This document shows, piece after piece, positions 40,156 through 60,140 of a stretch of 64,000 nucleotides of DNA. The position numbers and the translations under genes were made by a program. The notes under the pieces are model-generated. The model did no database searches. It saw only the letters and a list, made by a program, of their open reading frames with translations, and was not told where the DNA came from. Origin of the DNA: a virus (taxonomy: Duplodnaviria > Caudoviricetes). The stretch is taken from the IMG/VR virus record IMGVR_UViG_3300024351_000013; one strand, written 5' to 3'. The first letter of the stretch is position 1; every line of letters begins with the position of its first letter.

Positions 40156-40167
40156 ACTTGCTCTTTT

Positions 40168-40556: not shown

Positions 40557-41906
40557 TTATTTAGGAATTTGGTCTGCTTTTAATTTAAATCCAGTTTTCT
40601 TCCACCATTCTGCAATTTGATGATAAGACCTAATATGAGCTGGACCTTGACCATCTACAATTACCCAATCATCCTTTAAACCATTAAATTCTTCACTATT
40701 GATTATACAAGTATCAAACTTTTTAATTTCTTCAACAAATAGTGGGAATGTATAAACTTTTCCCAATGAGAAAACAAGATTTTCTACAATTGGTTGCAGA
40801 TTAGATTCTGGAATATCAAAATGGAATTCGTCATCATAGTAATAAGTATCAATTATTTTTTGAGCACGCTCTCTTTTAAGGATATATGCAGTCGCAGACC
40901 AGTCATCAAATTGTCTTTCCCTAACTTTAATATCGGTCATTTGATCTCTGACCCACATAAGTTGAACGCATTCCCAATCTGAGGGTAAATTATCAACAAA
41001 CTCTCCCCAAGTAAAGTTCCAATTCTTAATAGTTTCTAATGAAAGATCATCCTCACAAAAAAATCCATAAGGTTCATCTGTTTCATTTAACCACCTCTTA
41101 ATACATCTCATATGAGAAGTGCAACATCCTTTACTTGCATTGGTCAAAGTGTGAACATATTGACCATGAAGAATATCATTACACTCTATAAATCTTTTGG
41201 ATACTACTGAGTTAATTTTTTCAATATCATATTCTTTAAATTGATTTTCTAAATGAGTTCTTCTATCAATGGATTCTTCTAAACTCAAATAATATATCGA
41301 AGGAAATCCTTTTAATTTTGTTTTATCTTCGTCAAGAAGATATGGGAAATCCATACCTAAAACATTAAAATTATTTTTAACTGATTTTTTATGAGAATCA
41401 TTCATTTGATCATAATAATCATCAACCAATATTTTAAACAATCTTCTACACTCTTCAGATTTTCCCCACCAATATGAACAAACTGCTTTTTCAAAAATTA
41501 ACCCATATTTTCCGGGATACTCAACATCGGTTCTTAGTGGTTCTTGATTAAAATCGCAAAAAGTTAAAGCTGTATTTGAAAGTGTATATGCTTCAGTATA
41601 ACTCTTATTCCACTCTTCATATCTTGAAAGAATATAATATGCTTCTGGTCTTCTTGGTAAAACAGTAATTGCATGGTTTAGGAGACCTTTGACAGTATAC
41701 CAACGGTTTCCTTGTTTGTTAAAACAATATGACATTCTAATCAAAGACTCATAAACTAAATTCAAATCATCCGCTCTATCTGCTGCCCTCAAATAATAAG
41801 AAATTGCGGATGCAGTTTGGCCCAATATTTCATATTGTACTGCAAGATTAAAATTGCTTTCAGCATTTTCTGTATCTTGAATGTAATTATAAAGTGTATC
41901 ATCCAT
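40557..41906 (-). CDS. TPR-domain protein fused to a GT25-like glycosyltransferase
   Basis: Helical repeats at the N-terminus; YYLSLEESIDRR, GCCTSH, FFCEDD. Confidence 0.7.
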   Translation of the reverse strand: MDDTLYNYIQDTENAESNFNLAVQYEILGQTASAISYYLRAADRADDLNLVYESLIRMSYCFNKQGNRWYTVKGLLNHAITVLPRRPEAYYILSRYEEWNKSYTEAYTLSNTALTFCDFNQEPLRTDVEYPGKYGLIFEKAVCSYWWGKSEECRRLFKILVDDYYDQMNDSHKKSVKNNFNVLGMDFPYLLDEDKTKLKGFPSIYYLSLEESIDRRTHLENQFKEYDIEKINSVVSKRFIECNDILHGQYVHTLTNASKGCCTSHMRCIKRWLNETDEPYGFFCEDDLSLETIKNWNFTWGEFVDNLPSDWECVQLMWVRDQMTDIKVRERQFDDWSATAYILKRERAQKIIDTYYYDDEFHFDIPESNLQPIVENLVFSLGKVYTFPLFVEEIKKFDTCIINSEEFNGLKDDWVIVDGQGPAHIRSYHQIAEWWKKTGFKLKADQIPK

Positions 41907-42876
41907 TAATAAAATCCTCCAGAAATTGTCCAGGTACTCTTAAAACATATGCGGCATTATCTTGAAAACCAAAAGTAATCAAGTAATCTTCTTTATACTT
42001 TGCCATACCACAAGCAAATTCAATTTTTGCATTAAGGAAAGAAAACTGCTGCGAAATTTTTTGTATATTCCAGTCCTTATCCCAAAAAGTGAAACGATGC
42101 CTGTATGTTGCATCTTTCCTTCCCGCTTCACTTCTATACAAATCGGTTTCGTGATTTAGGGTTAAGTATCCACCATTATATGACAGGACTTGAGAACCTC
42201 CTCTCAGATCTCTATTATGTTGAACCCAATTTTTAATGATTACACTTTCTGTACTGTTATTCTGGACATCAACTTTGACTATCTCTGTACCATTTGTCCA
42301 CTTGACAAAGTGATAGGGCATGTCTAAGATTGGCATCCAGTTTTTATTACAATACTCTTTGTCGGGTGGAGGACCTGGGATTCTAAATCTCGATACCTCG
42401 TTTACAGAATTTTCATTAATTTCAATTTCCGAAAGTTCCATTCTTCCGGTTCCGATAGTATCTAAATCTCTTCTAACACCACACAAAAATAATTTGCTGT
42501 CCCATTCTATCAATCTTGCATCTTCGAGACCAACAAATTCCCACAACGGTGGTTTATCAAAAGCAGATGTATCTACTTTTGAAAAGTATGAAATATTCAA
42601 ATCATCATCAAGTTCACAGATAAAATTAGTTGTTGTTAGTGTATTGTCGTTATCTGGATTTAGATACACTAAAGGACCATACGGATGTTCGTAATTTTTT
42701 AACTCCGAATGGTATAGAGTATATTGAATGTGCCTCACATTCGCTAAAATTTTATTGTCTTTAACAAGTATGGATGGGTTACATAACCCAGTACCATTTG
42801 TTTCATTTGATGGTATTATTAATGGTTTTATTTTTCCACCATTATCTAAAACCTGCTTCACAAAGCCTACAGACAT
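41899..42876 (-). CDS. Beta-propeller glycoside hydrolase/phosphorylase-like protein (GH130/GH43-like)
   Basis: CNPSI, GLEDARL, KNWMP, RGGS, EFACG, FGFQD blade motifs. Confidence 0.6.
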   Translation of the reverse strand: MSVGFVKQVLDNGGKIKPLIIPSNETNGTGLCNPSILVKDNKILANVRHIQYTLYHSELKNYEHPYGPLVYLNPDNDNTLTTTNFICELDDDLNISYFSKVDTSAFDKPPLWEFVGLEDARLIEWDSKLFLCGVRRDLDTIGTGRMELSEIEINENSVNEVSRFRIPGPPPDKEYCNKNWMPILDMPYHFVKWTNGTEIVKVDVQNNSTESVIIKNWVQHNRDLRGGSQVLSYNGGYLTLNHETDLYRSEAGRKDATYRHRFTFWDKDWNIQKISQQFSFLNAKIEFACGMAKYKEDYLITFGFQDNAAYVLRVPGQFLEDFING

Positions 42877-42914
42877 AAGATCACCAGAAAATCAATTGAG
42901 ATTTTAAAACTGTT

Positions 42915-43277
42915 CTATTTATTGTACATTTTTACCTCCCTATATTCGGAATTGAATTCCTCATCAATTCTTTTCTTTATGTCTGCTCTTTTATCATTAG
43001 TAATATAGACACTTCGGGCAAGTTCAATGAACTTTTTCCCAAAGTCTTTATTTTTTTCTAACTCTCTCAATTCATCTTCAATCTTCCAAAGTTTTTGATT
43101 AACTTCCCTCAGTTCATTCATGTACTCAAGAGTGAATTGGATAAGAGTATTTTTGATTTGATTTAAGTCCTCAAGTTCTTTGAGAACATATTCATTGTTA
43201 GTAAACATAGACTTAATTTCAAGAATCGAAATTTTATCTAATAGTTCACCTACTGATACTGGAATTGTAATCTTCAT
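42915..43277 (-). CDS. Hypothetical protein (DUF6165-like)
   Basis: IPVSVGELLDKISILEIK, LWKIED, ARSVYITND.R. Confidence 0.7.
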   Translation of the reverse strand: MKITIPVSVGELLDKISILEIKSMFTNNEYVLKELEDLNQIKNTLIQFTLEYMNELREVNQKLWKIEDELRELEKNKDFGKKFIELARSVYITNDKRADIKKRIDEEFNSEYREVKMYNK

Positions 43278-44569
43278 GCTATTTTCTTATAAGAATCAAC
43301 AGTCTCTTCTATAAATTCAATCATCTGGTCGTTTATAGTTGGGGAGCATCCAATAAAAAATACATTCTCAAGAACTTTCATTGCATTTGGATAATCAAAT
43401 CCAGAACCAAGATGTCGGTAAGCTGGATGAATCAAAAGATTGCCTGCAAAATAATTTCTTGTTTGTATCTTGTTATCTTCCAAGTGCTTAACAAGTTTCT
43501 CCTTGTTAGTATTGCATACAATCGGAACACCAAACCAACTTGTTTCAGACTGCGGTAACTCATCAATCACTCTTACTCCAGGAATAGATTCGAAGATTTG
43601 ATGAATTCGTGCCTTATTATATCTGCGAAGATAATGAATTTCATCAAACTTTTTAAGTTGCACTGAACCGATTGAACCAAGCATATCAATTGGTTTGAGA
43701 TTATAACCAATTTGTCCGAAGATGTACTTATGGTCTACAACCTTATCATATCCAACTAACCATTTATCAAATCTCTTACCACAAGTTCCACAAGAAAGAA
43801 GATTTTGTGAACCAACGCAATAGCAATCTCTTCCCCACCAAGCAAAACTACGAGCAATATCAATCACTTCTTTAATATTAGAAGACACCATACCACCTTC
43901 AATCGTTGTAATATGATGTGCTGGATAGAAAGAACAAGAAGATGCAACAGAGTAGTCTGTAAGATACTTACCTTTCCATTTACTTCCAAGGCTATCGCAG
44001 TTATCAGAAATTAACTCAAGTTTATAACGATCACAAATCTCAAGTAGATAATCAAAGTTATATGCATTTCCGAGAACAGGTGAAGAAAATACTGCTCTTG
44101 TTCTTGGGGTTATTTTGGATTTAAGTTCATCCAAATTCCAATTCAAATCAGTATAATCAATATCAACAAAGACTGGTTTTAGATTGTTTTGAAGGATGGG
44201 ATTAAGAGTAGTTGGAAATCCACAAACAGATACAATAATTTCATCACCATCTTGCCAATCAAAATATTTCTTGAGAGCAGCAATCATTACAAGATTTGCT
44301 GAGCTCCCAGAATTTACCATTACTGAATGTTGAAAGTTAAACTTCTGTGAGAATTCTTTCTCAAACTTATTCACTGCCTCACCGGAAGATAACCACTTTC
44401 CAGTCAGGAAGGTTTTCATTGCAACTTGAATTTCTTCGTGATTCCAGTAGGGACCAGAGTAAAAAATATTTGATTCTCCCTTCACATAATCATTATTATA
44501 GAGATACTTAAAGAAAGATTCATCACTTTCAAAAAGGTCATCAATAAATTGCTTTACTTGTTCTTTCAT
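43274..44569 (-). CDS. rfbH: RfbH/DdhC-type CDP-4-keto-6-deoxyglucose 3-dehydrase (DegT/DnrJ fold)
   Basis: VNSGSSANL, DNCDSLG; SFYPAHHIT with His at the usual Lys position; GRDCYC...C..C Fe-S-type motif. Confidence 0.85.
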   Translation of the reverse strand: MKEQVKQFIDDLFESDESFFKYLYNNDYVKGESNIFYSGPYWNHEEIQVAMKTFLTGKWLSSGEAVNKFEKEFSQKFNFQHSVMVNSGSSANLVMIAALKKYFDWQDGDEIIVSVCGFPTTLNPILQNNLKPVFVDIDYTDLNWNLDELKSKITPRTRAVFSSPVLGNAYNFDYLLEICDRYKLELISDNCDSLGSKWKGKYLTDYSVASSCSFYPAHHITTIEGGMVSSNIKEVIDIARSFAWWGRDCYCVGSQNLLSCGTCGKRFDKWLVGYDKVVDHKYIFGQIGYNLKPIDMLGSIGSVQLKKFDEIHYLRRYNKARIHQIFESIPGVRVIDELPQSETSWFGVPIVCNTNKEKLVKHLEDNKIQTRNYFAGNLLIHPAYRHLGSGFDYPNAMKVLENVFFIGCSPTINDQMIEFIEETVDSYKKIA

Positions 44570-44571
44570 TT

Positions 44572-45339
44572 TTAATTCACAATATAGGAGAAATTTTCTT
44601 CAAGACAACCTTGCCAAGCTAATTGTAAAATTCTTTCAAACCAATGTGCTTCTACGGGATTGTCATTATAATCAGTATAATACATCATTTTTTTATAAAA
44701 GTTTTTGCTGTACTTTAGGATGCAATTTTTTGGTACGGCATAATTTGCTGCGGGAGCAAAACTTATAAATTTGGGAATTTGGTAATCTTCTATAATAAAC
44801 AAGTCTTTCATGAATTCCAGAAAATTAGAGATTCTAGGATAAGTTTTTGCTTTTCTAAAATCTTCTTCCGAAAAAACACACCCCATTGTGTAGTTTTTTA
44901 ATTCCCACTCTATGGGTAGAGAAAACAAATTGTTATTTAAAATATAAGGAAAATTATTTTGAATATGATTTCCACCATCAATAGGAACAAACCAATTCGC
45001 TTTTAGAGCATATATAAATCTCTTCTCTGTTGTATATGAAGTTTTTCCATTTGGGGGTTCTTTTTTTAATAGATTTCCTTTGATGTGAATCATCATGTCC
45101 GGAAGATTGTCATAGTGGTCTACAATAAATCTACCGATATCATAAGGATTTGAACCAACATTAGGTGAAGGTATAACTTTTCCTAAGTGACATATCTTCG
45201 ATTTATTCGGAAAATCGTTAGGCGTTCGATCGTAAATAAGAGTATTTTCTGGAGAAAATCCATAGTCATAAGTCATTTTTAGCCACTCTAAGTCATGATT
45301 AGAATGATTACTGACTACAAGAATTTTTGATATTGACAT
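44572..45339 (-). CDS. DUF3431-like putative glycosyltransferase-associated protein
   Basis: NVG....IGRFIVDHYDNLPD, ANYAVPK..I, AHWFER. Confidence 0.6.
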   Translation of the reverse strand: MSISKILVVSNHSNHDLEWLKMTYDYGFSPENTLIYDRTPNDFPNKSKICHLGKVIPSPNVGSNPYDIGRFIVDHYDNLPDMMIHIKGNLLKKEPPNGKTSYTTEKRFIYALKANWFVPIDGGNHIQNNFPYILNNNLFSLPIEWELKNYTMGCVFSEEDFRKAKTYPRISNFLEFMKDLFIIEDYQIPKFISFAPAANYAVPKNCILKYSKNFYKKMMYYTDYNDNPVEAHWFERILQLAWQGCLEENFSYIVN

Positions 45340-45360
45340 AGTAAATGATTATATGGTTTA

Positions 45361-46185
45361 CTATAACATATTGCAAAGCATATGCAAACCGTATTTAAAA
45401 TTAATTTGTGGTTCGAATTTGAGAGACTTTAATTTGTCGATATTCAAAGTCATATTTTTAATTTGAATATATTGCTGATTAGTTGGTATTGGAACACTAA
45501 TTAATTTACTATGACTATTTGTAATACTTTTTGCTGTTTCTATAATATATTTAAAGTTATTTGATGTTCCCGAAGCAATATTATAAATTTCGTTGTGGTG
45601 TCCAAATTCCAAAATTATCTCAATTGCTTTACATACATCTTCAACAAACATATAGTCTTTTAAATAATCTCCGTTATCATAAAGATGAACATCTTCATTT
45701 TTCTTCAATTGTTTTATGATATGTGCCAGGACATTTTTCTTCAAAGAAATTGTTTTATCCAATCCATAAACATTTCCAATTCTTAAAATTCTATATTTAA
45801 TATTAAAGGTCTTGCAAAAGGAAATTAATAATTGCTCTGCACATCTTTTTGTTACAGAATAAAATCCAGTTGGATTGCAATTATCAGTTTCTTTTGCATC
45901 TATAATATCATTACCATAAACAAAACATGAACTAATAAAATTAAATGTGATGTCTTTATCTTTGCAATTGGATAAGACATCCATCAGAAAATTTAGATTA
46001 GTGTTTATATCTATATGAAGATCATTAAAAACATTTTGATTTGTGGTGGTGCTTATAAAATATAAAACTTCTTTGGTATCAAATTCTATACTTTGCTTTG
46101 GAATTATATTTACTTTTTGTGAGTATAATCTACAAAATGTTCCTCCAATAAATCCAGTCCCCCCAAAAACTGCTATTTTACTCAT
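45361..46185 (-). CDS. NAD-dependent epimerase/reductase (extended SDR)
   Basis: GGTGFIG, YSVTK, R.GNVYG. Confidence 0.9.
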   Translation of the reverse strand: MSKIAVFGGTGFIGGTFCRLYSQKVNIIPKQSIEFDTKEVLYFISTTTNQNVFNDLHIDINTNLNFLMDVLSNCKDKDITFNFISSCFVYGNDIIDAKETDNCNPTGFYSVTKRCAEQLLISFCKTFNIKYRILRIGNVYGLDKTISLKKNVLAHIIKQLKKNEDVHLYDNGDYLKDYMFVEDVCKAIEIILEFGHHNEIYNIASGTSNNFKYIIETAKSITNSHSKLISVPIPTNQQYIQIKNMTLNIDKLKSLKFEPQINFKYGLHMLCNML

Positions 46186-47165
46186 ACAAAATTCATGTGA
46201 TTACTATCATAAAGACTCTTTATCGCTTGAGTTCTTTCTGGATAAGTTAAAGTTTCTGGATTAAATCCTGTTGCAAAGATAATAATATTTGGATTTTGTG
46301 TGAGTTTTCCAATTTCTAACAAGTGATTAAATGCTTTTCCTAGAAGTCCTCCACCAAAATTCATTGCTTCACTGAGTGCATGGAAAGCATAGTTTGCAGA
46401 CTTTTCTACCTCTTTAAGATTAACTAAACAAATACTACACATGATGAACACATCAATCCTTTGTGGATCAAAATATGCTTTGGAGATATTGAGATATTGT
46501 TGACCTACCTCAAGTACTTTATTGAGATTTTTGACCTGATAGTAGTGCTTAAAAATAAACCAAAGATAATAATTATTTTCTGGATTATTTTGATATTCTC
46601 TCTCGCAGATTGAAAGATAGAAAAGTTCTTTATCAATACTTGGTTGAAGGTTTTTAGTAATCTTAATTGTAGTATCTACTGCAACCTCACCAAGATGTTC
46701 TTCAGTTGGAAGAAACATTGGAGTTTCGTGAACTGCATTTACCCAAGTATAGTTTTTAGTTCTATGAAAACGAACATGTGCAGTTTGACCTAGAGTTGGT
46801 TCTTCATCATCAATTTTATCATACCTTTCATGTTTAAATGTTGTAAACTCTTCAGAGATTACTGCAAGACCCTCTGGGAAAAAATCATCTATTTCTTCAT
46901 TAAAATCTATAGAAAAAGCCCAATCAGTTTCCACATAAGATAATGCCTGATTTCTTGCTACTGAAAAATCAAACTCTGCACGAGTCTGTGGATGCTCGTA
47001 GACTTTAATACCAGCATCTTTAAGTAGTTGAATTGTATTGTCTGTACTTCCAGTATCGACTACAACGACATCATCAAATTTCTCTGCATTCTTGAGAAAC
47101 TTTTCAATATTTTTTTCTTCGTTCTTTGCGATTGCGTATAGTGTAACTTTCATTTTAATCCTCAC
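46182..47165 (-). CDS. GT2 glycosyltransferase with C-terminal TPR-like helices
   Basis: IAKNEE, VVVDTGSTD.T, DFSVARN, SIDFNE, VHE. Confidence 0.85.
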   Translation of the reverse strand: MRIKMKVTLYAIAKNEEKNIEKFLKNAEKFDDVVVVDTGSTDNTIQLLKDAGIKVYEHPQTRAEFDFSVARNQALSYVETDWAFSIDFNEEIDDFFPEGLAVISEEFTTFKHERYDKIDDEEPTLGQTAHVRFHRTKNYTWVNAVHETPMFLPTEEHLGEVAVDTTIKITKNLQPSIDKELFYLSICEREYQNNPENNYYLWFIFKHYYQVKNLNKVLEVGQQYLNISKAYFDPQRIDVFIMCSICLVNLKEVEKSANYAFHALSEAMNFGGGLLGKAFNHLLEIGKLTQNPNIIIFATGFNPETLTYPERTQAIKSLYDSNHMNFV

Positions 47166-47207
47166 TTGTTGTTTTTAATAATTTCTGATTTATTAGGACC
47201 CCATCCA

Positions 47208-47528
47208 CTATGAGGATTGATGAAGGTTTGATAGAAGTCGTATGTACCGCGAATTATCAGCAGTGTAATTATTTTGATTGAATCCTGGATAACCCATTAA
47301 AAACAATCCAGGAGGATTTTTAAGTGTAACCATTAAGTTACACTCTACCAATCTTGCCTTAATTCCTTCTTTATGTAAAAGTTTAAGTACAATATCACTC
47401 ATACTCAAACAATATCCAGAACCTGCTTCGGTCATTCCAGATTTATGAAGACCATCTACAACTCCCTTAATAATGTTAAAATATTCAGTTTCAACTACAG
47501 GATGATTTTTCATAATTATTTTTCCCAA
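47208..47528 (-). CDS. Hypothetical protein, possibly truncated (transglutaminase-like Cys motif)
   Basis: GYCLSMS..VLKLL..EGI; abrupt end, with an open alternative frame continuing to about 47163. Confidence 0.5.
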   Translation of the reverse strand: MGKIIMKNHPVVETEYFNIIKGVVDGLHKSGMTEAGSGYCLSMSDIVLKLLHKEGIKARLVECNLMVTLKNPPGLFLMGYPGFNQNNYTADNSRYIRLLSNLHQSS

Positions 47529-48082
47529 GCATTATCGTAATGATGTAAAGCAGTTGTTTTTTTATAACCAAGAGTTTTGAAAATATTTTCTATTTCATGT
47601 TTTTTATCACCAAGATGTAATTCTTCATATTCAATTCTTTGAATATCATAATTATTCCAATCTGTTGTTAATAAAATTTCAGAGTCAATTCCTTCAATAT
47701 CCAATAGTAACCAATCCAATTCCTTGATATCATACTTTTCAAATAATTGATTTATAGTTATACAAGGAACTTCAAAATATCTAATTCCGTCACTTGGATA
47801 ATAAATTTCAATATGAGACTTCACACAAGAAGCGACATGGTACATTGGACCATCATTTTGATGATAATAAAGTTTTAATGTGTCTTCATTGTAAGAAGGA
47901 ACTTTAATTGCAACATTCTCAATAACAGAATTTTGATATTGAGAATAGCAATTTTTTAAATTTCCAATATGTAGTGGATTTGCTTCAACAAAAAGTCCAA
48001 ATTCTAATTCATTATAATTTTCTTTGAGATGTTTAGATAAATCATCATCACCTTTATTAGAACCAATTTGAACTACTTTCAT
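47516..48082 (-). CDS. FkbM family methyltransferase
   Basis: QIGSN.G, VEANP, ENVAI, LLDIEG. Confidence 0.85.
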   Translation of the reverse strand: MKVVQIGSNKGDDDLSKHLKENYNELEFGLFVEANPLHIGNLKNCYSQYQNSVIENVAIKVPSYNEDTLKLYYHQNDGPMYHVASCVKSHIEIYYPSDGIRYFEVPCITINQLFEKYDIKELDWLLLDIEGIDSEILLTTDWNNYDIQRIEYEELHLGDKKHEIENIFKTLGYKKTTALHHYDNAWEK

Positions 48083-48777
48083 AAAAACTTTTTCCAATCA
48101 ATACAAGGTGATAATAAATCTGCTTGACAATGTGTAGAATAACCAGGAAGTGATGATATTAAAACTCTTCCTCTCTGTGCTAACTCCAGAAATTTTTGGT
48201 GGTCCGCAGAAGGTTCCACACCTGTAGAATATTTAGTGTGCGTGTAAAAGTCCTCTACAAGAGTTGAATACTTCACAGCAAATGTATTGGTTGTTGAAGG
48301 AGTTGCCATCCAATGACAAGAATCTGTAAATAAAACTTTAGTTCGGAACTCTGCATAATACTCACCATACTTGTCTCTGTGGTCGTACAAGGTCGCATAA
48401 GAGATGGGAAGGGCGAATGCCTCTAACAGAACTTTATCCCACCCTGGTTGATGAATATAATCATCTTCCAAGAAGTAAATGATATCATCTTGAGAATGAT
48501 TTTGTGTTTTAATATACTTCAAAGTTTCTATAAAGCTCTTTGCTTCTCCGCCGCAATTGATCGTATATATATTTTCTTCATTTGATAGGAAAGTATCTTC
48601 TATCTTTCCATAATGTTCGTCATAAATGATTGCGTATTTTGTTGTTTCTGGATTGAGAGTATTTTTGAAGTTTTGGAATACCTTTTCTTTGTCCCACCAA
48701 GAAGGTCTTTGTTTTCCAGGACTCTCTTGAATTTTGGAATAATAGCAATGTCTCAAATAAACATTAATTTTTGTCAT
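48079..48777 (-). CDS. Putative GT-A fold glycosyltransferase
   Basis: IIYFLEDDYIH DxD-type motif, STTNTF. Confidence 0.65.
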   Translation of the reverse strand: MTKINVYLRHCYYSKIQESPGKQRPSWWDKEKVFQNFKNTLNPETTKYAIIYDEHYGKIEDTFLSNEENIYTINCGGEAKSFIETLKYIKTQNHSQDDIIYFLEDDYIHQPGWDKVLLEAFALPISYATLYDHRDKYGEYYAEFRTKVLFTDSCHWMATPSTTNTFAVKYSTLVEDFYTHTKYSTGVEPSADHQKFLELAQRGRVLISSLPGYSTHCQADLLSPCIDWKKFL

Positions 48778-48779
48778 TT

Positions 48780-49460
48780 CTAAAAAGGATAATTGGGTGT
48801 TTGTATTGTTGTTTCTCCTGGTTCATCATATGCATAAAATCCATATTGAATAATCGTAAATAGATTAGCGTGCATAAACTCATCGTTCATTGTAGTAATA
48901 CCATCAACCAGAAGACGAGAAACCATTAACTTCGCAACAGCAGGGTCAATTGCATATGCATGTGCCCGACCTATTTTACGAGTGAAAGTATCAGGTGATT
49001 GCATATGAATTGGAGTTGGTTGAACGGACATCCCATTATACTTCTGTTCCTTACAACCAAGATATGTGATTGCATTATAAAAAGGATAGGGACCAAAAAA
49101 TTTCTCTACCATTATAGCATCGTGCTCTAATATAACGATAGGTCTATCTATTGTGATACAATGAAACCACAAACTAAAGTGAGATAAGCAACACCCAATT
49201 TGAGATGGTGTCATAAATTTATGATTGACCTTCAACCATTTCAAGTAATCTTTGTCTTGAAGATGTTTCGGTATTACAATTTCTCCAGAAGAACCATCAA
49301 AACCTTCCCAAAGAGTATAAGGTTGCTCTACTGCAATACAACTCTCTATACATCTTTGAGTTAAGGTCTTTGAAGTTTCATTATTTGGTAGAGTAATAAT
49401 ATAAGTATTTTCTATAAAAGAATTCTCTGTTGGATAAAAACTTTCTAATGTTCGCTTCAT
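48780..49460 (-). CDS. GT25-like glycosyltransferase
   Basis: YIITL, IGCCLSH..LW, VILEHDA, AHAYAI. Confidence 0.75.
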   Translation of the reverse strand: MKRTLESFYPTENSFIENTYIITLPNNETSKTLTQRCIESCIAVEQPYTLWEGFDGSSGEIVIPKHLQDKDYLKWLKVNHKFMTPSQIGCCLSHFSLWFHCITIDRPIVILEHDAIMVEKFFGPYPFYNAITYLGCKEQKYNGMSVQPTPIHMQSPDTFTRKIGRAHAYAIDPAVAKLMVSRLLVDGITTMNDEFMHANLFTIIQYGFYAYDEPGETTIQTPNYPF

Positions 49461-50056
49461 TCTAAATTGCCTGATATTGAAATTCTATAATCATCACTTG
49501 TAGAAAATGGATAGACGCAATGAGATAAATGTGCTGGGAACAATACTATTCTACCACACCAATCCTCATTGACATATAAGGTTTCTAAAGTAAGTTGTCC
49601 TAAAATATTTGGATAGATGAATTGGAAAGTTGATGCTGCTTTTGCTTTTGTATCTTTTACATGAGCCGCATTCAACTCTTCTTCTACTTTGTATGGAATT
49701 TTTAACCAGCAAACAAAACTAAAAGTGCTGCTGTGATGGTGAATTGGATTAAACTCATTCTTCTTTTGAAAATTGACCCACAGATGAGTGAGTTTAAAGT
49801 CACTTGGTTTTTTGTAGAAATTCCAATAGTCTGTATATGACTTACACATTTCATTGAGATATGGTTGCAAAACTAACATAGACTTTTGCAACTCATATTG
49901 ATTTTCTATATTTCCTGCAAGACCATTATTGTAATTTGAATGAGAATGAAAATCAGAAGAGATTTCATTTACTTCATTCATTACTTGATTATAAAGTTCT
50001 TCTGGAAGAACACCAGATGTGACACCGGGATTTGGTAATGATATATGACTAAACAT
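49457..50056 (-). CDS. Putative 2OG-Fe(II) oxygenase
   Basis: WVN...NPIHHH..FSFV.W, VLFPA.L.H.V.P, RISISGN. Confidence 0.8.
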   Translation of the reverse strand: MFSHISLPNPGVTSGVLPEELYNQVMNEVNEISSDFHSHSNYNNGLAGNIENQYELQKSMLVLQPYLNEMCKSYTDYWNFYKKPSDFKLTHLWVNFQKKNEFNPIHHHSSTFSFVCWLKIPYKVEEELNAAHVKDTKAKAASTFQFIYPNILGQLTLETLYVNEDWCGRIVLFPAHLSHCVYPFSTSDDYRISISGNLE

Positions 50057-50852
50057 AGGTTTTTAATTTCTCCAAATCATATTCATTCCACCAAGACTTC
50101 CAATCAATAAAGAAGTCTCTATCATATTCTCCTTGCATATGTAGTGCTAAAGAAGGAATTGGAGTAAAGCAGAAATGTCCTCTTTCATAATAAACCCTAC
50201 AAATACTATCCATTTCCATCGTTTCACTTACCTCACTTGTTCCCATTTTGTGGAACAAGTCCCAGTGCTTTCTAATAATATCAACATGAGTCATTAAAGT
50301 CACTGCTACATGAAAATTAGTTCTCCAATATCTATCTTTTGATACTACAAGATGACAAGGAACTGCAGTGTTTTCTGCTTCGTGATACTCTGCTGGCTTA
50401 TTGAATGGAAAGATACTTGCAGGAGAACCTAGATTACAACTAAACTGATTAATTGCATGTATCATCAGTTCAACAGAGTCTTGTTGATGAAGAAAATCAT
50501 CTTGAACATAATAGACCCAATCTTTTCCATAATCTCTTCCATGTTCGTAGCACCTCAAAATAGATGGCATAATACCATAAGTCTCAAGATGGGTTAGATT
50601 AACTTTGAACTTTGCAATGCTGATAAGTTTTTCTAAAATATCTAAAAATTCTTTGTCCGAGTGGTCATCAAAGATTTGAAGTTCTATTTCATAATCTGGA
50701 TAATGTTCTTGTGCGTAATTGAGACTATCAATCAAAGAAAAGATACACCTTGAAGAAACTTCGATCTTTGGTGCTTCACAATATCTTCCAGAATCTTTAT
50801 CTCGGTTTCCTTTTGAATGAGTCTGGACGACAACTAACAAATGAGTTTTCAT
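50049..50852 (-). CDS. Putative GT-A fold glycosyltransferase
   Basis: IFDDHS, WVYYVQDDFLH, PIPSLALH. Confidence 0.65.
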   Translation of the reverse strand: MKTHLLVVVQTHSKGNRDKDSGRYCEAPKIEVSSRCIFSLIDSLNYAQEHYPDYEIELQIFDDHSDKEFLDILEKLISIAKFKVNLTHLETYGIMPSILRCYEHGRDYGKDWVYYVQDDFLHQQDSVELMIHAINQFSCNLGSPASIFPFNKPAEYHEAENTAVPCHLVVSKDRYWRTNFHVAVTLMTHVDIIRKHWDLFHKMGTSEVSETMEMDSICRVYYERGHFCFTPIPSLALHMQGEYDRDFFIDWKSWWNEYDLEKLKTYV

Positions 50853-51631
50853 ATATCAAACTTGGAATAAAGTTTTATATTCTCTTCTCCTATTACTTCA
50901 ATAGGATTTTGTGAAATTTTGGCAAGATTTGGACGAATATCATGAAGCCCTCTAAGTCCCCATTCTTCGTCCTTTTGTTCTCCACAAGCATTTTCAATGT
51001 TATTGAAAGTATTTGTATGAGATGGAACTTCTAAAAACTCATAGATTTTACTCAGTTCTTCTTCTGGATTATTGACTAGAGCATTATATTCAACTAAATG
51101 AACCCAATCTGGATATTTGTTGAGTCCATAAACCATACTCTCATAAGAAGGAGCAACATAATATCTCCAAATATATTCTGCACGATTATTATTTGTAATT
51201 GGTAGATTATCATTCCTTAAATGATTATCAATGAAATTATCATAGTGCTTTGACCTTTCTATGAGTGAAATATAAGATGTAAGAACTTCTGGAATAGAAC
51301 GATAAGTTGCTACAATTTTTGGTTTGTTGGAAAGAAACATTTGAACGGTATCAAGATTCTTTCCCCAAAACCGATGCTTATCTAGAATTGTTGATTTTGG
51401 AATGTGATTATAAAAGTTTGCAAGAACTGCCTTATAGACATTATACGAAATTGCCTTGCGGTCAAAGGTAAATTGGATATCTAAAGTATTAAATGATTTC
51501 TCAATATCAGTTACTACATCACCTAATGGAGATGTTGGTGATACATAAATGTCTGGATGTTGATTGAGAAGTGACCCAAGTAATGTAGAACCACTTCTTG
51601 GAAGTCCTCCAAGAAAATATAATGTCTTCAT
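50849..51631 (-). CDS. PAPS-dependent sulfotransferase
   Basis: GGLPRSGSTLL (5'-PSB loop), R....LTS (3'-PB), VEYNALV.NP. Confidence 0.88.
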   Translation of the reverse strand: MKTLYFLGGLPRSGSTLLGSLLNQHPDIYVSPTSPLGDVVTDIEKSFNTLDIQFTFDRKAISYNVYKAVLANFYNHIPKSTILDKHRFWGKNLDTVQMFLSNKPKIVATYRSIPEVLTSYISLIERSKHYDNFIDNHLRNDNLPITNNNRAEYIWRYYVAPSYESMVYGLNKYPDWVHLVEYNALVNNPEEELSKIYEFLEVPSHTNTFNNIENACGEQKDEEWGLRGLHDIRPNLAKISQNPIEVIGEENIKLYSKFDI

Positions 51632-51655
51632 AGTTTATTTCTTTCTTATTATGTA

Positions 51656-53335
51656 TTATATCACAGGATCGATGTATGTGAGTGCTACCGAAAACCTATC
51701 TCCACTAGAAACTTGTTTCCAGTTGGTTCCTCCTGCGAATGTAGTGATTGGAGTTGATTTACTAGTACCAGAACCATTGATTCCCTGTTGTCCATTAGAA
51801 TTATCACCCCAAGTCCATAAAGTTCCATCGGTCTTGATTGCTATTGTAATACGACATATATTAGAACCACTACAACCAACTTGTTTCCAGTTGGTTCCTC
51901 CTGCGAATGTAGTGACTGGAGTAGATGCATCGTTTCCAGCACCAGATCTAGTGATTCCTAGTTGTCCCTCATAATTACGACCCCAAGTCCATAAAGTTCC
52001 ATCAGTTTTGATTGCTGCTGTATGATAACCACCACCAGAAACTTGTTTCCAGTTGGTTCCTCCTGCGAATGTAGTGATCGGAGTGGATACATTAGTATTT
52101 GAATTGTTTCCTAATTGTGCAGAAGTATTATAACCCCAAGTCCAAAGAGTTCCATCAGTTTTAATTGCTGTAGAAAAACTACCTCCATTACTTATTTGAC
52201 TCCAATTAGTCCCTCCAGCAAATGTTGTGACTGGAGTTGATCTATTACCAGTAGCATTAATTCCAAGTCTTCCAAAAGATCCATCACCCCAAACCCATAA
52301 AGTTCCATCAGTTTTGATTGCCGCTATATGGCCTCTTCCGGCAGTAACTTGTTTCCAGTTGGTTCCTCCTGTGAATGTAGTGACTGGAGTTGATTTATTA
52401 TCTGTTGCAGCGTTTCCCATTTGTCCGACAAAACCACGACCCCAAGACCATAAAGTTCCATCAGTTTTAATTGCTACAGTAGAACGATAACCTCCAGCAT
52501 TAACTTGTTTCCAGTTGTTTCCTCCTGCGAATGTAGTGACTGGAGTTAATTTATTGGTTGTTGTACTGTCTCCTAGTTGTCCAGTATTATTACTACCCCA
52601 AAGCCATAAAGTTCCATCCGTTTTAATTGCTGCAGTATGAGTGTCTCCACAAGAAAGTTGTTTCCAATTGGTTCCACCAGCAAATGTTGTGATTGGAGTG
52701 AGTTTACCAGTTGTTGTATTGTCTCCTAGTCGTCCATCAGAATTAGTGCCCCAAGTCCATAAGTTTCCTTCACGAAACAAATCAGCAGGAACAAAAACAT
52801 TATCAAAACTATAAGTCAATCCATCATTACCTGTTACTATACTTCCATAGGTTGGAACATAAACACCAGCAGAAGATTTTCTTTCTATTTGAACTCCCCA
52901 AAAATCAAGAACAAGATTTGTATTGTTATCAGAATATAAGTCAATAAAACTTTTTGCGGTTGCTGTTGGAACTCCACTTGTAGTTACTCTTACCCACTGA
53001 TTAGTAATTAATTGTGATGAGTAATCAACTGAAGGACTTCCATCTGCTAAATCAGTAAATGCACTACCAGTTCCACTAATTCTCCTTACAAAAAAACTTG
53101 TCGTATAAGTATCAGTTCCGTTGGGAGTGAATGAAGGAAAATTAACTCTTAATAATGCATTAGTTGTATTATTGCATGTAAATCTAATTGCTGTATTTGT
53201 TCCATCAGGTGCAGTTATTCCTGTAGTTATTGTTGCACCTGCGGGAAAATTATTAATCCACGTAACAGTCCCTTCATAAGTGGAATATGCCACTAAATTT
53301 TCTCTATTGTTGATAAAATTATAAAATACTGGCAT
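51656..53335 (-). CDS. RCC1/BLIP-II 7-repeat beta-propeller protein with an inserted N-terminal lectin-like domain
   Basis: Seven LW.WG...LG...STPVTTFAGGTNWKQV units; about 160-aa insert after MPVFYNF. Confidence 0.85.
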   Translation of the reverse strand: MPVFYNFINNRENLVAYSTYEGTVTWINNFPAGATITTGITAPDGTNTAIRFTCNNTTNALLRVNFPSFTPNGTDTYTTSFFVRRISGTGSAFTDLADGSPSVDYSSQLITNQWVRVTTSGVPTATAKSFIDLYSDNNTNLVLDFWGVQIERKSSAGVYVPTYGSIVTGNDGLTYSFDNVFVPADLFREGNLWTWGTNSDGRLGDNTTTGKLTPITTFAGGTNWKQLSCGDTHTAAIKTDGTLWLWGSNNTGQLGDSTTTNKLTPVTTFAGGNNWKQVNAGGYRSTVAIKTDGTLWSWGRGFVGQMGNAATDNKSTPVTTFTGGTNWKQVTAGRGHIAAIKTDGTLWVWGDGSFGRLGINATGNRSTPVTTFAGGTNWSQISNGGSFSTAIKTDGTLWTWGYNTSAQLGNNSNTNVSTPITTFAGGTNWKQVSGGGYHTAAIKTDGTLWTWGRNYEGQLGITRSGAGNDASTPVTTFAGGTNWKQVGCSGSNICRITIAIKTDGTLWTWGDNSNGQQGINGSGTSKSTPITTFAGGTNWKQVSSGDRFSVALTYIDPVI

Positions 53336-53340
53336 TTCTT

Positions 53341-53706
53341 TTATTTTGGAGGAATCTCTACAAAAACAACTGGAGTATTCATTTTTTCACTCCAGTTTTG
53401 AAGATATTGTTTAACTTCAGAATTCATTTCTTTATTATTTATTGGAAGAACTTTTAGATATTGACCATCTCCACTTCCCTCAACAGAGACCAGAACATCA
53501 CACTTATCAGGTCGCATTTCTTCTGGTAGTAAATGCTGCGTCCAAGCACATTGATAGTCTCTACAAGATTCTGGTCGTGCCTTATGAACTCCACAACCAT
53601 TACATTCCAGATACTTACAAGACTTTCCTGCACCAAACTCCCAAGCAAAAGCATCACCAATCAACCAAGTACAACAAGCAGTACATTCTCCACATTCACG
53701 AAACAT
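53341..53706 (-). CDS. YkgJ-like cysteine-cluster (Zn/Fe-S) protein
   Basis: CGECTACC...C.YL...GC..H..RP..C..Y.C; start re-called at MFRECG. Confidence 0.75.
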   Translation of the reverse strand: MFRECGECTACCTWLIGDAFAWEFGAGKSCKYLECNGCGVHKARPESCRDYQCAWTQHLLPEEMRPDKCDVLVSVEGSGDGQYLKVLPINNKEMNSEVKQYLQNWSEKMNTPVVFVEIPPK

Positions 53707-54352
53707 AATCATCCTCCTTATAATAGTAAGTATATGAATCAAAAATTCCCGGTTGGTATATTGTTTTTGGATTTGAATTTGGATTACTTCCAATCCAAAG
53801 TTCTCTATCTATACGATAATCACTATAAAGAAACTTATGGTCTAGTGTTTGGATATGTTTGGCATTGGACCACCAAAAATTTCCAGTAAAATTATAAGTT
53901 CCTTCTAATGGTTTGGTGGTTGTACCATCAGACCATAAAGTTTCTCCCACAGAATTTAGATTTGAACCAACACAATCATATTCATCCAACATTTCCACAC
54001 ACTCTTTCCACCTATCAATTACAAAATACTCCATCATCAATCTCCAAGCATTTGCAATCAAAGTTCCTTTGCTTGCTCCCTTAGTGTGAAAATACAAAAT
54101 TTTATAATCCGGATTTTCATGCGCAAAATCTTTTAATGCAATCATCGTTTCCGTTTCTTCTGTCCAATTTTTATTGTAAACGACTTTTGCTTTTGTTGGT
54201 ATATAAAACATTTCTTGGCTGCCATTTACTCCAATATGAAAATGATCTATTTTATTCATTAGACCAGATACAAATAATCGATTAATCTGTTGTTGGTAGA
54301 TAAATGCGGAAATTTCATTTTGAAATGTATGATAAAAAACTGCTAACTTCAT
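53696..54352 (-). CDS. Hypothetical protein, putative glycosyltransferase-like
   Basis: ILYFHTKG, WRLMMEY, GNFWW, RELWIG; located in the glyco operon. Confidence 0.55.
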   Translation of the reverse strand: MKLAVFYHTFQNEISAFIYQQQINRLFVSGLMNKIDHFHIGVNGSQEMFYIPTKAKVVYNKNWTEETETMIALKDFAHENPDYKILYFHTKGASKGTLIANAWRLMMEYFVIDRWKECVEMLDEYDCVGSNLNSVGETLWSDGTTTKPLEGTYNFTGNFWWSNAKHIQTLDHKFLYSDYRIDRELWIGSNPNSNPKTIYQPGIFDSYTYYYKEDDYVS

Positions 54353-55137
54353 GTATGATACACCCCACCATTTTCGCCAGACATCCCCTTTACCATTGTA
54401 AGACCAAGATTTGGAACACTAATGATATTGTTCTTGTTTATAAATCGATAAAGTGAATGTTCTACATCAGTTCCAGAAGTAAATTGTATCATTTTTTCCA
54501 TATAAGTAAATGCCCCTTCAAGAGCCTCAACCGCTTCATTAAATAAAACTCTATCAAAAGACCAAAGACCAGTATTCATCATACCTTTTGCACCATATAA
54601 GTATGCATAGACATTTTCAAGATTACTTTCATTGAAACTTTCACCTTCTTCCAAAAGATAATCGTATTTTTTTACAATATATTTTCCTTCCAGAAACTTA
54701 CTTTCATAATCTTTAATATCAAAATGATCATTCAATAAGTATCTACCAGTAAGTTTAAAAACTCTTTGACTATCAGTGAATAGATTGTGCTGTTTAATTT
54801 CATAAAGAGTATTGAGTAATCCTCTTGTTTCCAACAATGATTTGCCATAAGTAATCAATTCTGGTCTTTCTTCAAGATTTTCATAAATTTGCTTTAGTAC
54901 TGGTTCATCATAAAACTCTAAAAACAAATCTGATTTTTCTTTAAGAATATCTTTTTGTTTCTCATCAATAGGTTTAGAAGAACACTCAAATAAAACCACA
55001 TAAGACTCTGAAACTTTCTTACGAATACATTCAATCGTTTCTAATGTTTGATTGAATCTCTGTTCTTCATTATAAGCACTAAACTCATCCTCTTTAAAAT
55101 GTTTGAGTGCTGAACCGACTAAAAATAAAAATTTCAT
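54349..55137 (-). CDS. Hypothetical protein, putative glycosyltransferase-like
   Basis: RFNQTLETI, VFKLTGRY; ATGA-coupled. Confidence 0.5.
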   Translation of the reverse strand: MKFLFLVGSALKHFKEDEFSAYNEEQRFNQTLETIECIRKKVSESYVVLFECSSKPIDEKQKDILKEKSDLFLEFYDEPVLKQIYENLEERPELITYGKSLLETRGLLNTLYEIKQHNLFTDSQRVFKLTGRYLLNDHFDIKDYESKFLEGKYIVKKYDYLLEEGESFNESNLENVYAYLYGAKGMMNTGLWSFDRVLFNEAVEALEGAFTYMEKMIQFTSGTDVEHSLYRFINKNNIISVPNLGLTMVKGMSGENGGVYHT

Positions 55138-55592
55138 AAGTAATCTGTATTAAAACTAATAATAATTCTTTCTTCTGTTTCTTCTTCCGTATAATGAACT
55201 AAATCACTTGAGAAGATAACCAACAATCCAGGATAAGGTTTAATTGATGTATCTGGAAAAATGAGTGGAGTGCTTCCAGAAATATAAAATGCTCCACTTA
55301 TAATACTTTCTCCATGATTATGTGCTTTGAGTTTATTTCCTGGTTGTGAGATATTGAACCAACTATTGATAAACTTTAGAGGTGAAATCTCATACTTATT
55401 ACAATACAGTCTAACATATTGCTTAAGAACATTTCTTAATCCAGTCAGTTCTGAATACATTAAAGTAGGCATTCCATGATTATAAGTAGAAACACCTTTT
55501 GTTATAAGTCCGTGAGAAGCAGTTTCTATTTCAAGAAGTTTGCTCTTGATGGTATTTAGATTTAAAAAAGAAAGATTATATTCCTCTATCAT
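55134..55592 (-). CDS. Putative 2OG-Fe(II) oxygenase (TIGR02466-like)
   Basis: SWFN, AHNH..ISGAFY, LVIFSS.L.H, R..ISFN. Confidence 0.8.
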   Translation of the reverse strand: MIEEYNLSFLNLNTIKSKLLEIETASHGLITKGVSTYNHGMPTLMYSELTGLRNVLKQYVRLYCNKYEISPLKFINSWFNISQPGNKLKAHNHGESIISGAFYISGSTPLIFPDTSIKPYPGLLVIFSSDLVHYTEEETEERIIISFNTDYL

Positions 55593-56925
55593 TCAAAAAC
55601 TCTCCTAGTTGCTTCAGTGGTTCATCCCAGTTTCTTGGTTTCTTTTGTCGGAACAGATGAATATTATCTCCATACCACATACACTTTCCTGTAGAGGAAG
55701 TCCAAACATAATATTCCATAATAGGAACAAAGACACAGACTTCTTTACCCATTGATGCTGCTACATGTGCCACAAAACTACAAGAAGTCACTACCAAATC
55801 AAGGTTCTTGATGATTGAGAATGTGTCGGCATATTCTCTATTAGGAACTGATAGTGATTGTTTGATTTCGGGATACTCATTGGCATCCTTATTATCACTG
55901 TGAGTTTGAAGTGAATAAAGTGAGTATCCTTTGTTTCCAAGAACACTCATATAGTCTTTGAGTTCTACTGAACGGAAAGTGTTCTGCTCGAACCCAGAAC
56001 TAGAAGCCCAGAACATTCCAACCTTATATCCAGTGTCTTCTTTTATCCACTCCCATTTCTTATCGTATTCTGGGAGTGTTTGGAGATAAGGTTCTCTTCC
56101 CATATCTTTGAGTTGCAGATTGAGATAATATGGAAGTGCCAGACCATAAACCCAGAAAGCATCTTTAGGAAACTCTGGTTTATCCCAAATACAAACAGCA
56201 TCATATCCATTATGTTTGAAGAGTTCTACAAGTTCTCTGCGAGTAGAACTCCAAATTGGTTTCATTCCCAAGTCTTTGAGGTGTTTCATAAACCGAATAT
56301 GAATGACTTCATCACCGGCGCCACATTGATTATCTACAATGATCGTTCTTCCTGGCGTCACTGTTCCATCCCATTTTTCAAAATCGGGATGTTTTTGATT
56401 CTTATATGCTTCTACTTCCCCTGCTTTGAGAAAGTGTTGAAGTCCCGTATGAATATCATCCTTACGGAAATAATGTCCTGATAGATTATGATATGCTTTT
56501 CTTTCAATCTCTTCTGGTAGTTTATATTTGAGAAGATTGAAGAGTAGTTTTTCTGACTTCTCTTTTTGATTGAGTGCAGAATACGCGAAGGTTTCCTCAA
56601 GAAGCAATTCAGTATCTTGCGGATTTATCTTCTTGCACTTATCAATTTGGGTAATAGATTTCTCTGGATGATTTGATTGATTATATGCATTAATCAAATT
56701 CATAGAGGTCGTATATTTTTCTTCTTTTGTTTGTGCTAATTTGAGAGACTTTTCTCCATACTCAATTGCCTTGGAGAAGTTCTTAAGTTCAAAAAATATT
56801 TTTGCTACATCATTATATTGAGAAAAAACTTGTGCTTGTTTTCCAAAGGCATCAAGTAATTCGAATGTTAGTTGCTGTTCTTTAAATGAATATAATGTCT
56901 TTGCTACCAATTCAAGTGGGTTCAT
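55576..56925 (-). CDS. TPR protein fused to a GT9-like (GT-B) domain
   Basis: N-terminal TPRs; W.G....TI.V....G.GD.I..IRF, DLVVTSCS.VAH.AASMG. Confidence 0.75.
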   Translation of the reverse strand: MNPLELVAKTLYSFKEQQLTFELLDAFGKQAQVFSQYNDVAKIFFELKNFSKAIEYGEKSLKLAQTKEEKYTTSMNLINAYNQSNHPEKSITQIDKCKKINPQDTELLLEETFAYSALNQKEKSEKLLFNLLKYKLPEEIERKAYHNLSGHYFRKDDIHTGLQHFLKAGEVEAYKNQKHPDFEKWDGTVTPGRTIIVDNQCGAGDEVIHIRFMKHLKDLGMKPIWSSTRRELVELFKHNGYDAVCIWDKPEFPKDAFWVYGLALPYYLNLQLKDMGREPYLQTLPEYDKKWEWIKEDTGYKVGMFWASSSGFEQNTFRSVELKDYMSVLGNKGYSLYSLQTHSDNKDANEYPEIKQSLSVPNREYADTFSIIKNLDLVVTSCSFVAHVAASMGKEVCVFVPIMEYYVWTSSTGKCMWYGDNIHLFRQKKPRNWDEPLKQLGEFLNDRGI

Positions 56926-56947: not shown

Positions 56948-56954
56948 TATTTAG
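56948..56954 (-). promoter_or_regulatory. Late-promoter-like CTAAATA at the head of the modification operon
   Basis: CTAAATA 23 nt upstream of the 56925 ATG; the same box precedes g3 and 40542. Confidence 0.55.
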
Positions 56955-58165: not shown

Positions 58166-58166
58166 A

Positions 58167-58835: not shown

Positions 58836-58852
58836 AGCAATTTTTTAAGTAT

Positions 58853-60037: not shown

Positions 60038-60110
60038 TTAACTTTTTCTCCAACTCTTCGATACGAACCTGTTGTTCTTTAATTGCTTCAATCAATACAC
60101 CCACAAGATT
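60031..60110 (-). pseudogene. Orphan 3' end of a peptidase-S74 (intramolecular chaperone) fibre gene
   Basis: NLVGVLIEAIKEQQVRIEELEKKLNA-stop with no start codon; 38/44 nt identical to 63707..63750. Confidence 0.75.
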
Positions 60111-60140
60111 TATAGGTATTTATCTGAAACTACAAAAAAA

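Follow-up and report, generated by a model that had tools for sequence, protein, structure and literature searches.

A 64,000-nt stretch of viral DNA (IMG/VR record IMGVR_UViG_3300024351_000013, Caudoviricetes; hereafter the window) was analyzed for a block of glycosylation and tailoring genes at 40557–56925. The block contains 20 open reading frames (ORFs), numbered g1 to g20 in transcription order (56925 down to 40557), all on the minus strand, as is every gene in the window; the phage that carries it is a T4-like freshwater cyanomyophage, kin of Synechococcus phage S-SRM01. We judge the chances to be about even that the block is a phage-encoded cytoplasmic protein-decoration system whose main acceptors are the phage's own fiber proteins, chiefly RCC1 propellers. 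The strongest line of evidence on the acceptor is synteny between RCC1 genes and g1, the gene for a TPR-containing glycosyltransferase that anchors the cassette. The initial annotation had favored virion proteins over DNA or host lipopolysaccharide (LPS) as the acceptor; the soluble enzymes, the lack of a ThyA-family gene in S-SRM01, the protein-modifying relatives of g14 and g7, and the RCC1 linkage all argue for that proposal and lend it partial support.

Block proteins were searched against Pfam, NCBIfam, and PHROGs, and subsets were searched against PDB and Atlas. The anchor gene g1 (55576–56925) was assigned as a TPR protein with a GT9-fold glycosyltransferase domain using an AlphaFold2 model, VIA-align, and a TPR profile. 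In the model (predicted local distance difference test score, pLDDT, 91; 46-sequence alignment), TPR repeats occupy approximately residues 1–175, a part also supported by profile search, and the GT9-fold domain occupies residues 187–449. When aligned with VIA-align, residues 187–449 matched the GT9 structure 3tov with Z 17.0 (root mean square deviation 3.1, 247 aligned), WaaF (1psw) with Z 15.5, the protein heptosyltransferase TibC (4rap) with Z 15.3, and 2h1h with Z 14.9; the catalytic domain has a GT-B fold superposable on WaaC/WaaF/TibC. PF01075 did not match g1 itself and matched 5 of 46 family members (best E 9e-5), while the g1 sequence retrieved only TPR proteins from PDB, the catalytic domain being recognized by fold search. 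Foldseek with the whole g1 chain returned the protein O-glycosyltransferases SPINDLY and OGT as top matches with probability 1.0, but with TM scores of 0.28–0.37, and the catalytic domain aligned far better to GT9 than to GT41. Across 21 close relatives from IMG/VR, no gene of the region is as well conserved as g1 (84–93% amino-acid identity versus 50–65% for its neighbors). A modeled complex of g1 with the adjoining RCC1 protein (56960–58165) scored 0.00, which gives no verdict and weighs neither way.

In these 21 relatives, where genes from g15 onward may fall outside the 10-kb flank, a core of g2–g7, g11, g14, and g18 is kept, with g8–g10, g12, g13, and g19 variably present. Viral g1 homologs were collected by a profile scan (at least 593), and the best 80 (25–71% identity) were analyzed, those below 60% identity being classed as distant. 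An RCC1 gene lies no more than 2.6 kb upstream of the g1 homolog on the same strand at all 39 close viral loci and at 36 of the 48 distant loci with enough upstream sequence, and a sulfotransferase gene lies within 2.6 kb of the g1 homolog at 38 of 57 distant viral loci. The usual order is RCC1, sulfotransferase, Cys-cluster protein, small methyltransferase, and TPR-GT9, often followed by a g3 homolog, which in distant loci comes directly after TPR-GT9. Clustered at 50% identity, g1 homologs formed nine clusters; every cluster has an RCC1 gene nearby, and in eight of them it lies upstream on the same strand. The neighboring genes were verified as RCC1 by Pfam, and RCC1 repeats were found in none of 14 control genomes. 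The searchable literature yielded no RCC1-linked TPR-GT9/sulfotransferase cassette and nothing relevant on cyanophage virion glycoproteins. As a separate observation, two distant phages have a compact cassette (L022, 7143–11332; L052, 7105–11410) of one to two sulfotransferases, a Cys-cluster protein, a Methyltransf_11 enzyme, and TPR-GT9; an RCC1 gene lies directly upstream of the cassette in L052 and is lacking in L022.

The linkage extends to bacteria, where an RCC1 gene is on the same strand within 8 kb of a g1-like gene at 32 of 57 loci, approximately half of them within 400 nt. Taxa with such loci are Bdellovibrionota, Saccharibacteria/Nomurabacteria, Bacteroidota, Methylobacter, and Phycisphaerales. 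At seven bacterial loci (L125, on the Bdellovibrio bacteriovorus Bd16 chromosome, and L108, L110, L136, L137, L149, and L150), RCC1 proteins of up to ~1,090 amino acids are encoded beside a g1-like GT9-fold gene, and a sulfotransferase gene adjoins in 6 of the 57 loci (candidate phyla radiation [CPR] bacteria, Methylobacter, and Phycisphaerales). Absence of linkage with RCC1 genes in relatives had been named beforehand as what would overturn the proposal of virion-protein decoration; the linkage is present in deeply diverged phages as well as in these bacteria.

Within the window, RCC1 genes occur both inside the block and directly upstream of it. The embedded fiber-like RCC1 gene reported in the initial annotation is g6 (51656–53335), a candidate acceptor assigned by Pfam RCC1 and NCBIfam, which combines a fiber-type N-terminal domain (NF048003 head-spike-fiber domain, 73.5 bits in NCBIfam) with a seven-blade RCC1 propeller and is 17% Thr. 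Two RCC1 propeller genes and a tail-fiber-like gene (56960–60037, minus strand) lie directly upstream of g1, the first RCC1 gene ending 34 nt before it, and the protein of 61349–62878 also has a phage head-spike-fiber domain. The RCC1 proteins look structural, and in phage GAP32 an RCC1-domain protein was detected as a virion protein by mass spectrometry (PMC5259590). Thr content exceeds 13% in the window only in the fiber-like genes at 56960–63648 and in g6. The interleaving with Thr-rich structural genes that had been noted is real, but Thr richness was rejected as a sign of glycosylation sites: it marks every fiber-like gene here and is ordinary for beta-rich fibers. In S-SRM01 (locus L024, 22–10584), whose RCC1 proteins include gp335, gp337, and gp344, the block lies between RCC1/fiber genes and tail-fiber/endosialidase-like genes; downstream are tail-fiber genes and three genes annotated as endosialidase, in the position of the terminase gene here. 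The downstream neighbor of the island varies between relatives.

Protein is the substrate of the closest characterized relatives of g14 and the g7 family, which favors a protein acceptor here too. g14 (46182–47165) was assigned by Pfam GT2 and PDB matches as a GT2 enzyme with a helical, TPR-like C terminus of the GmaR/SunS type. In PDB it matched GmaR (7.4e-10, query 10–100), SunS (6e-7, query 7–247), and a ThuS-like protein (1.2e-5), and the SunS alignment spans the GT-A domain and reaches the first helical repeat; its NCBIfam SunS score (30.6 bits) is far under the cut-off of 350. GmaR is the flagellin O-GlcNAc transferase of Listeria. Identity of g14 among relatives is 62–75%. Three TPR-fused glycosyltransferases had been counted; the TPR of g1 stands, the helical C terminus of g14 is TPR-like with no Pfam TPR match, and the TPR signal of g20 is sub-threshold. 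g7 (50849–51631), a 3′-phosphoadenosine-5′-phosphosulfate (PAPS) sulfotransferase by Pfam, contains the PAPS-binding 5′-PSB loop GLPRSGST. A g7 family profile (32 sequences) searched against PDB retrieved TPST1 (2.4e-12, positions 4–203) and TPST2 (5.6e-9), with polyketide and carbohydrate sulfotransferases ranking well under both. A sulfated glycan had been proposed; the sulfotransferase is there, but its nearest solved relatives are protein-tyrosine sulfotransferases, and the acceptor of the sulfate may be protein instead of sugar.

No membrane segment was predicted in any of the 20 block proteins (19-residue hydropathy maximum 1.45; threshold 1.6), and the block therefore lacks a flippase, polymerase, ligase, initiating phosphoglycosyltransferase, and exporter. 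In the mechanism that we propose, the TPR domain of g1 would recognize the folded or nascent fiber protein and g1 would add the first sugar. The conserved partners g3 (GT-A), g4, g11, g14 (GmaR/SunS-type), g5, g2, and g7 would extend and tailor the modification, with the sulfate from g7 placed either on the glycan or straight on tyrosine. The strain-variable set (g8, g9, g10, g12, g15, g16, g17, g19, and g20) would diversify the glycan in the style of an O-antigen locus, g17 and g15 making a 3,6-dideoxyhexose. Expression would probably be late, along with the fiber genes. More broadly, and tentatively, an RCC1-adhesin cassette (TPR-GT9, TPST-like sulfotransferase, CxxCxxCC protein, small methyltransferase or GT-A partner, and RCC1 gene) may be common to aquatic phages, Bdellovibrionota, and CPR bacteria and may in cyanomyophages have grown into a strain-variable island that coats fibers with a sulfated, methylated dideoxyhexose.

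Several points weigh against decoration of RCC1 fibers. The observations comprise gene content, folds, the lack of membrane proteins, and synteny, and from these we infer which molecule is modified, in what order the steps run, and when the block is expressed. GT9, GT25, and 3,6-dideoxyhexose enzymes are classic LPS/O-antigen components, and soluble glycosyltransferases also work on undecaprenyl-linked intermediates at the inner membrane face. In the published view, cyanophage sugar islands serve host surface modification (PMC1079782; PMC12801897). The synteny statistics are tempered by Bdellovibrio, in which RCC1 genes number from several to about a dozen per genome (55–65 RCC1 repeats), and no nearby RCC1 gene is present at 7 of 48 distant viral loci (L022, L062–65, L069, and L071) and 25 of 57 bacterial loci. 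The viral loci analyzed were the best 80 of at least 593, many of which may share ancestry, and synteny could partly be an inherited position in the fiber module. The similarity of g7 to TPST may reflect which sulfotransferases have solved structures. Finally, the box before g1 is CTAAATA, not the published NATAAATA.

The rival that survives best, which we consider less probable than fiber decoration, is host-surface remodeling. In this reading, undecaprenyl-linked intermediates of the host's O-antigen, LPS core, or exopolysaccharide would be modified by the soluble glycosyltransferases and sugar-nucleotide enzymes and then exported by host flippases, polymerases, and ligases, thereby blocking superinfection, preventing adsorption of progeny to debris, or altering grazing. 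GT25, GT9-fold, and RfbH-type enzymes belong to LPS-associated families, the combination of a conserved core with variable genes resembles O-antigen loci, and cyanobacteria make sulfated polysaccharides; host-surface modification is also the published hypothesis for P-SSM2 and S-SCSM2R. However, the block has no membrane protein of any type, and to our knowledge the known phage O-antigen modifiers (Gtr, Oac, and Wzy types) are membrane proteins. The position of the block within the fiber module and behind a late-type box, and the protein substrates of the nearest characterized relatives of g14 and the g7 family, also count against host-surface remodeling, and linkage to RCC1 in both phages and bacteria would be unexpected for an LPS function.

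A different cytoplasmic acceptor is less probable again. It might be a host protein, for example a translation factor or a component of the pilus or S-layer, or else a phage protein outside the virion, a glycolipid, or a small molecule, with RCC1 as a partner such as a lectin or scaffold. TPR domains bind many kinds of proteins, the very large g1 family comprises 22,446 cluster representatives at E ≤ 0.001, among which giant multi-copy proteins are numerous, and the cassette occurs without an RCC1 gene at the viral loci named above. Against this, the simplest reading of the RCC1 gene that most loci have immediately upstream on the same strand is one half of an enzyme–substrate gene pair, as for TibC and its adhesin, and no alternative candidate is conserved beside g1. 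Glycosylation of phage DNA, as T4-type or arabinosyl-hydroxymethylcytosine (hmC) hypermodification that evades restriction, has precedents in phages whose glycosyltransferases hypermodify their DNA using a variety of glycans (Pyle, 2024, cited in PMC12619734) and in an earlier proposal for S-SCSM2R (PMC12801897) but is very improbable. The ThyA/dCMP-hydroxymethylase family (PF00303) has no member in the complete S-SRM01 genome or in two related contigs of ~155 kb, which makes hmC- or hydroxymethyluracil (hmU)-based glycosylation unlikely, and a DNA pathway would not be expected to have TPR fusions, RCC1 linkage, an E1 dehydrase, or a TPST-like sulfotransferase.

Of the 19 junctions within the block, 11 are overlaps, most of them ATGA, and no gap is wider than ~54 nt, which bears out the description of the genes as tightly coupled. 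The block is flanked by genes for the large terminase subunit, tail sheath, portal, tail-fiber-like proteins, and two more RCC1 proteins. A CTAAATA late-promoter-like box, reported in the initial annotation at the start of the block, was located at 56948–56954 (minus strand), 29 nt upstream of the g1 start, with the spacing of ATAAATA boxes before sheath, portal, and other late genes. The late box published for cyanomyophages is NATAAATA, of which CTAAATA is a variant, and a CTAAATA box has been described for Aeromonas phage Aeh1; the window contains eight copies, all on the coding strand, a total below chance. The coding strand of the window contains 28 copies of the core ATAAATA and the opposite strand none, and 13 of the 28 copies are positioned 21–53 nt before gene starts, including those of sheath and portal, providing a clean map of candidate late promoters. 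A canonical ATAAATA core lies within the block at 42916–42922 (minus strand), 46 nt before the g19 start. The extended −10-like site noted before the sulfotransferase gene (TGATATAAT, 51655–51663, minus strand, overlapping the g6 stop codon) is present, but such sites occur at chance frequency in the region: 82 sigma-70-like matches were found versus 80.8 expected from shuffled sequence. Sigma-70-like and terminator-like sites were both rejected as evidence, their counts being equal to chance. On these motifs, late expression of the block is plausible.

S-SRM01, a freshwater Synechococcus myovirus (Kyanoviridae, 240,842 bp) isolated on a named Synechococcus host, is the sole close database relative and matches 16% of the block at ~82% nucleotide identity. 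It carries the conserved core of the cassette, and the S-SRM01 paper contains no discussion of the block. The GC content is 0.29–0.31 at 44001–48000, the variable middle of the block, versus 0.33–0.43 in the rest of the window, which fits recent gain of this segment.

The ~16-kb inventory of sugar and tailoring genes is real and largely as the initial annotation described it, with corrections for g3, g17, g19, and g7. g3 (54349–55137) is a GT-A-fold nucleotide-sugar transferase-like protein that has no invariant DxD; its AlphaFold2 model (pLDDT 90) matched GnT-I (Z 13.5), SpsA (Z 13.0), and the chlorovirus capsid glycosyltransferase PBCV-1 A64R (Z 12.1) in VIA-align, and an Atlas search gave a weak WavE lead. 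Three unknowns had been called glycosyltransferase-like; of the unknown genes, g3 has a GT-A fold, and g4, g11, and g16 stay weak leads. g4 (53696–54352) is DUF8361-like (Atlas features 0.98 to DUF8361 clusters; RgpF lead weak, 15% share), g11 (48079–48777) is a conserved protein weakly resembling GT2 around an EDD motif (E 0.018), and g16 (44572–45339) is a DUF3431 protein by family match. Further glycosyltransferases assigned by Pfam are g8 (GT2, 50049–50852), which comes and goes among relatives, and the variable g10 (GT25, 48780–49460). g20 (40557–41906) has a helical N terminus followed by GT25 (Pfam) and matched the phrog_2835 glucosyltransferase family (6e-47); the g10 and g20 sequences gave only marginal matches in PDB. 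g19 (41899–42876), previously described as a glycosidase-like propeller, is indeed a beta-propeller and in Atlas more exactly GH130/BMT(GT91)-like, probably a glycosyl transferase or phosphorylase; its structural neighbors in Atlas include viral fusions with FkbM, GT2, and TPR, giant-virus proteins among them. PHROGs returned no match for 8 of 10 block proteins tried, and NCBIfam returned none for g3, g4, g5, g8, g10, g11, g13, g16, g18, and g19.

g17 (43274–44569) was assigned by PDB and NCBIfam as an E1/RfbH-type 3-dehydrase of nucleoside diphosphate (NDP)-4-keto-6-deoxyhexoses that uses pyridoxamine 5′-phosphate (PMP) and a [2Fe-2S] cluster. It matched PDB 3BCX (4e-69) with SFYPAHHIT, WGRDCYC, and further Cys residues kept and scored 369 bits on the NCBIfam model of RfbH, the CDP-6-deoxy-L-threo-D-glycero-4-hexulose 3-dehydrase, below the equivalog cut-off of 423. 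Its earlier call as an aminotransferase is ruled out by the E1 match, the DegT fold with His in place of the Schiff-base Lys, and the Cys cluster motif; such a 3-dehydrase functions in 3,6-dideoxyhexose synthesis. Together with g15 (45361–46185), a short-chain dehydrogenase/reductase (short SDR) of the NDP-sugar reductase/epimerase type (GxxGxxG and YxxxK; Pfam, NCBIfam), g17 points to a 3,6-dideoxyhexose. No homolog of the E3 reductase, RfbF, RfbG, a cytidylyltransferase, or a 4,6-dehydratase was found among the 20 block proteins, and the pathway would therefore depend on host enzymes or a ferredoxin stand-in.

The tailoring genes include the two expected 2-oxoglutarate (2OG)-Fe(II) oxygenases, both 2OG-FeII_Oxy_5 by Pfam: g2 (55134–55592; PF13759, E 1e-12; TIGR02466) and the variable g9 (49457–50056), which moves together with g10. 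The FkbM methyltransferase that had been listed is g12 (47516–48082; Pfam, NCBIfam), with a probable ATG start at 48082. g5 (53341–53712; phrog_9155) is a Cys-cluster protein with 10 Cys, probably CxxCxxCC/YkgJ-like; its homologs reach PF03692 (CxxCxxCC) below cut-off only, and its real start is probably an internal ATG at 53712 or 53706. g13 (47208–47513, in an ORF reaching 47528) is a small protein with no family match and a homolog in one related locus only (L017, 78% identity), possibly a gene remnant, and g18 (42915–43277) is a conserved DUF6165/DUF4254 protein by family match. Outside the block, the ORFs at 40168–40542 and 38671–40155 are in one frame, parted by one stop codon and four sense codons, and jointly span PHROG families 727 and 3477; the region 38671–40542 looks like one modular gene broken by a stop codon. 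The window also contains a single tRNA gene, tRNA-Ala (TGC), at 348–419 on the minus strand.

The substrate of cyanomyophage sugar islands has been debated since 2005, the islands having been taken variously as LPS, cell-wall, or DNA-modification genes or as stuffer DNA, and the island described here suggests a specific, testable candidate, namely the RCC1 fiber proteins of the phage itself. Mycobacteriophages and giant viruses are already known to glycosylate themselves, and cyanomyophages are already known to carry sugar islands. If our reading is true, the range of virion glycosylation and sulfation would widen beyond mycobacteriophages and giant viruses to include abundant aquatic myoviruses. 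This would matter for host range, the stability of particles, grazing, and antigenic diversity, and the occurrence of the cassette in Bdellovibrio and CPR bacteria as well would indicate a wider, unstudied class of modified propeller adhesins.

Among known systems, the cyanophage LPS/cell-wall islands (P-SSM2, S-SM2, S-SSM7, S-SCSM1, and S-SCSM2R) are similar in being large clusters of glycosyltransferase and NDP-sugar genes in cyanomyophages of >200 kb. Those described in the literature are located close to hli03 or phoH and have been assigned host-surface or DNA functions, or even regarded as stuffer DNA. The earlier placement of LPS-like islands near phage genes g15–g18 (not those of the present block) was imprecise, the known hypervariable region being gp17–gp18. 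The present island, by contrast, is located in the fiber module next to the large terminase gene, its TPR-GT9 anchor is linked to RCC1 genes, and it also encodes a TPST-like sulfotransferase and an E1 dehydrase. Phage O-antigen modifiers (GtrABC, Oac, and Wzy-type) differ in that the block has no integral membrane protein.

The autotransporter heptosyltransferases TibC/Aah, which act with the adhesins TibA/AIDA-I (PDB 4RAP), resemble g1 as soluble GT9-fold enzymes, and in both cases the enzyme gene adjoins a gene for a repetitive, beta-rich, adhesin-like protein, the presumed cytoplasmic substrate. Unlike TibC/Aah, g1 has an N-terminal TPR and shares ~10% sequence identity, the neighbor is an RCC1 propeller rather than an autotransporter, and the block adds a sulfotransferase, a Cys-cluster protein, and GT-A partners. 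TPR and glycosyltransferase modules are likewise combined in the cytoplasmic enzymes FlmG (flagellin; PMC7591256), GmaR, SunS/ThuS (peptide S-glycosylation), and OGT/SPINDLY (GT41). g14 has direct sequence similarity to GmaR/SunS, and g1 shares with OGT, SPINDLY, and FlmG the joining of TPR to a GT-B domain; unlike in OGT/SPINDLY, where it is of the GT41 type, the catalytic domain of g1 shows the GT9 fold, and g1 and g14 are phage-borne.

The mycobacteriophage system reportedly comprises about two glycosyltransferases, with glycans on capsid and tail-tube C termini. The present block, from a myovirus of cyanobacteria, has 20 genes and includes oxygenases as well as functions in sugar-nucleotide synthesis, methylation, and sulfation, and its suspected targets are RCC1 fibers. 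The two have a common theme, as mycobacteriophages decorate virion proteins with their own glycosyltransferases encoded beside structural genes (Freeman et al., 2023, as cited in PMC12619734). In chlorovirus and mimivirus capsid or fibril glycosylation (PBCV-1 A64R, PDB 2P6W), soluble cytoplasmic glycosyltransferases and methyltransferases also act on the virus's own structural proteins; these are eukaryotic giant viruses with different acceptor proteins, and the similarity is at the level of fold only, as between g3 and A64R, with structural neighbors of g19 and g3 that include Nucleocytoviricota glycosyltransferase–TPR–methyltransferase fusions.

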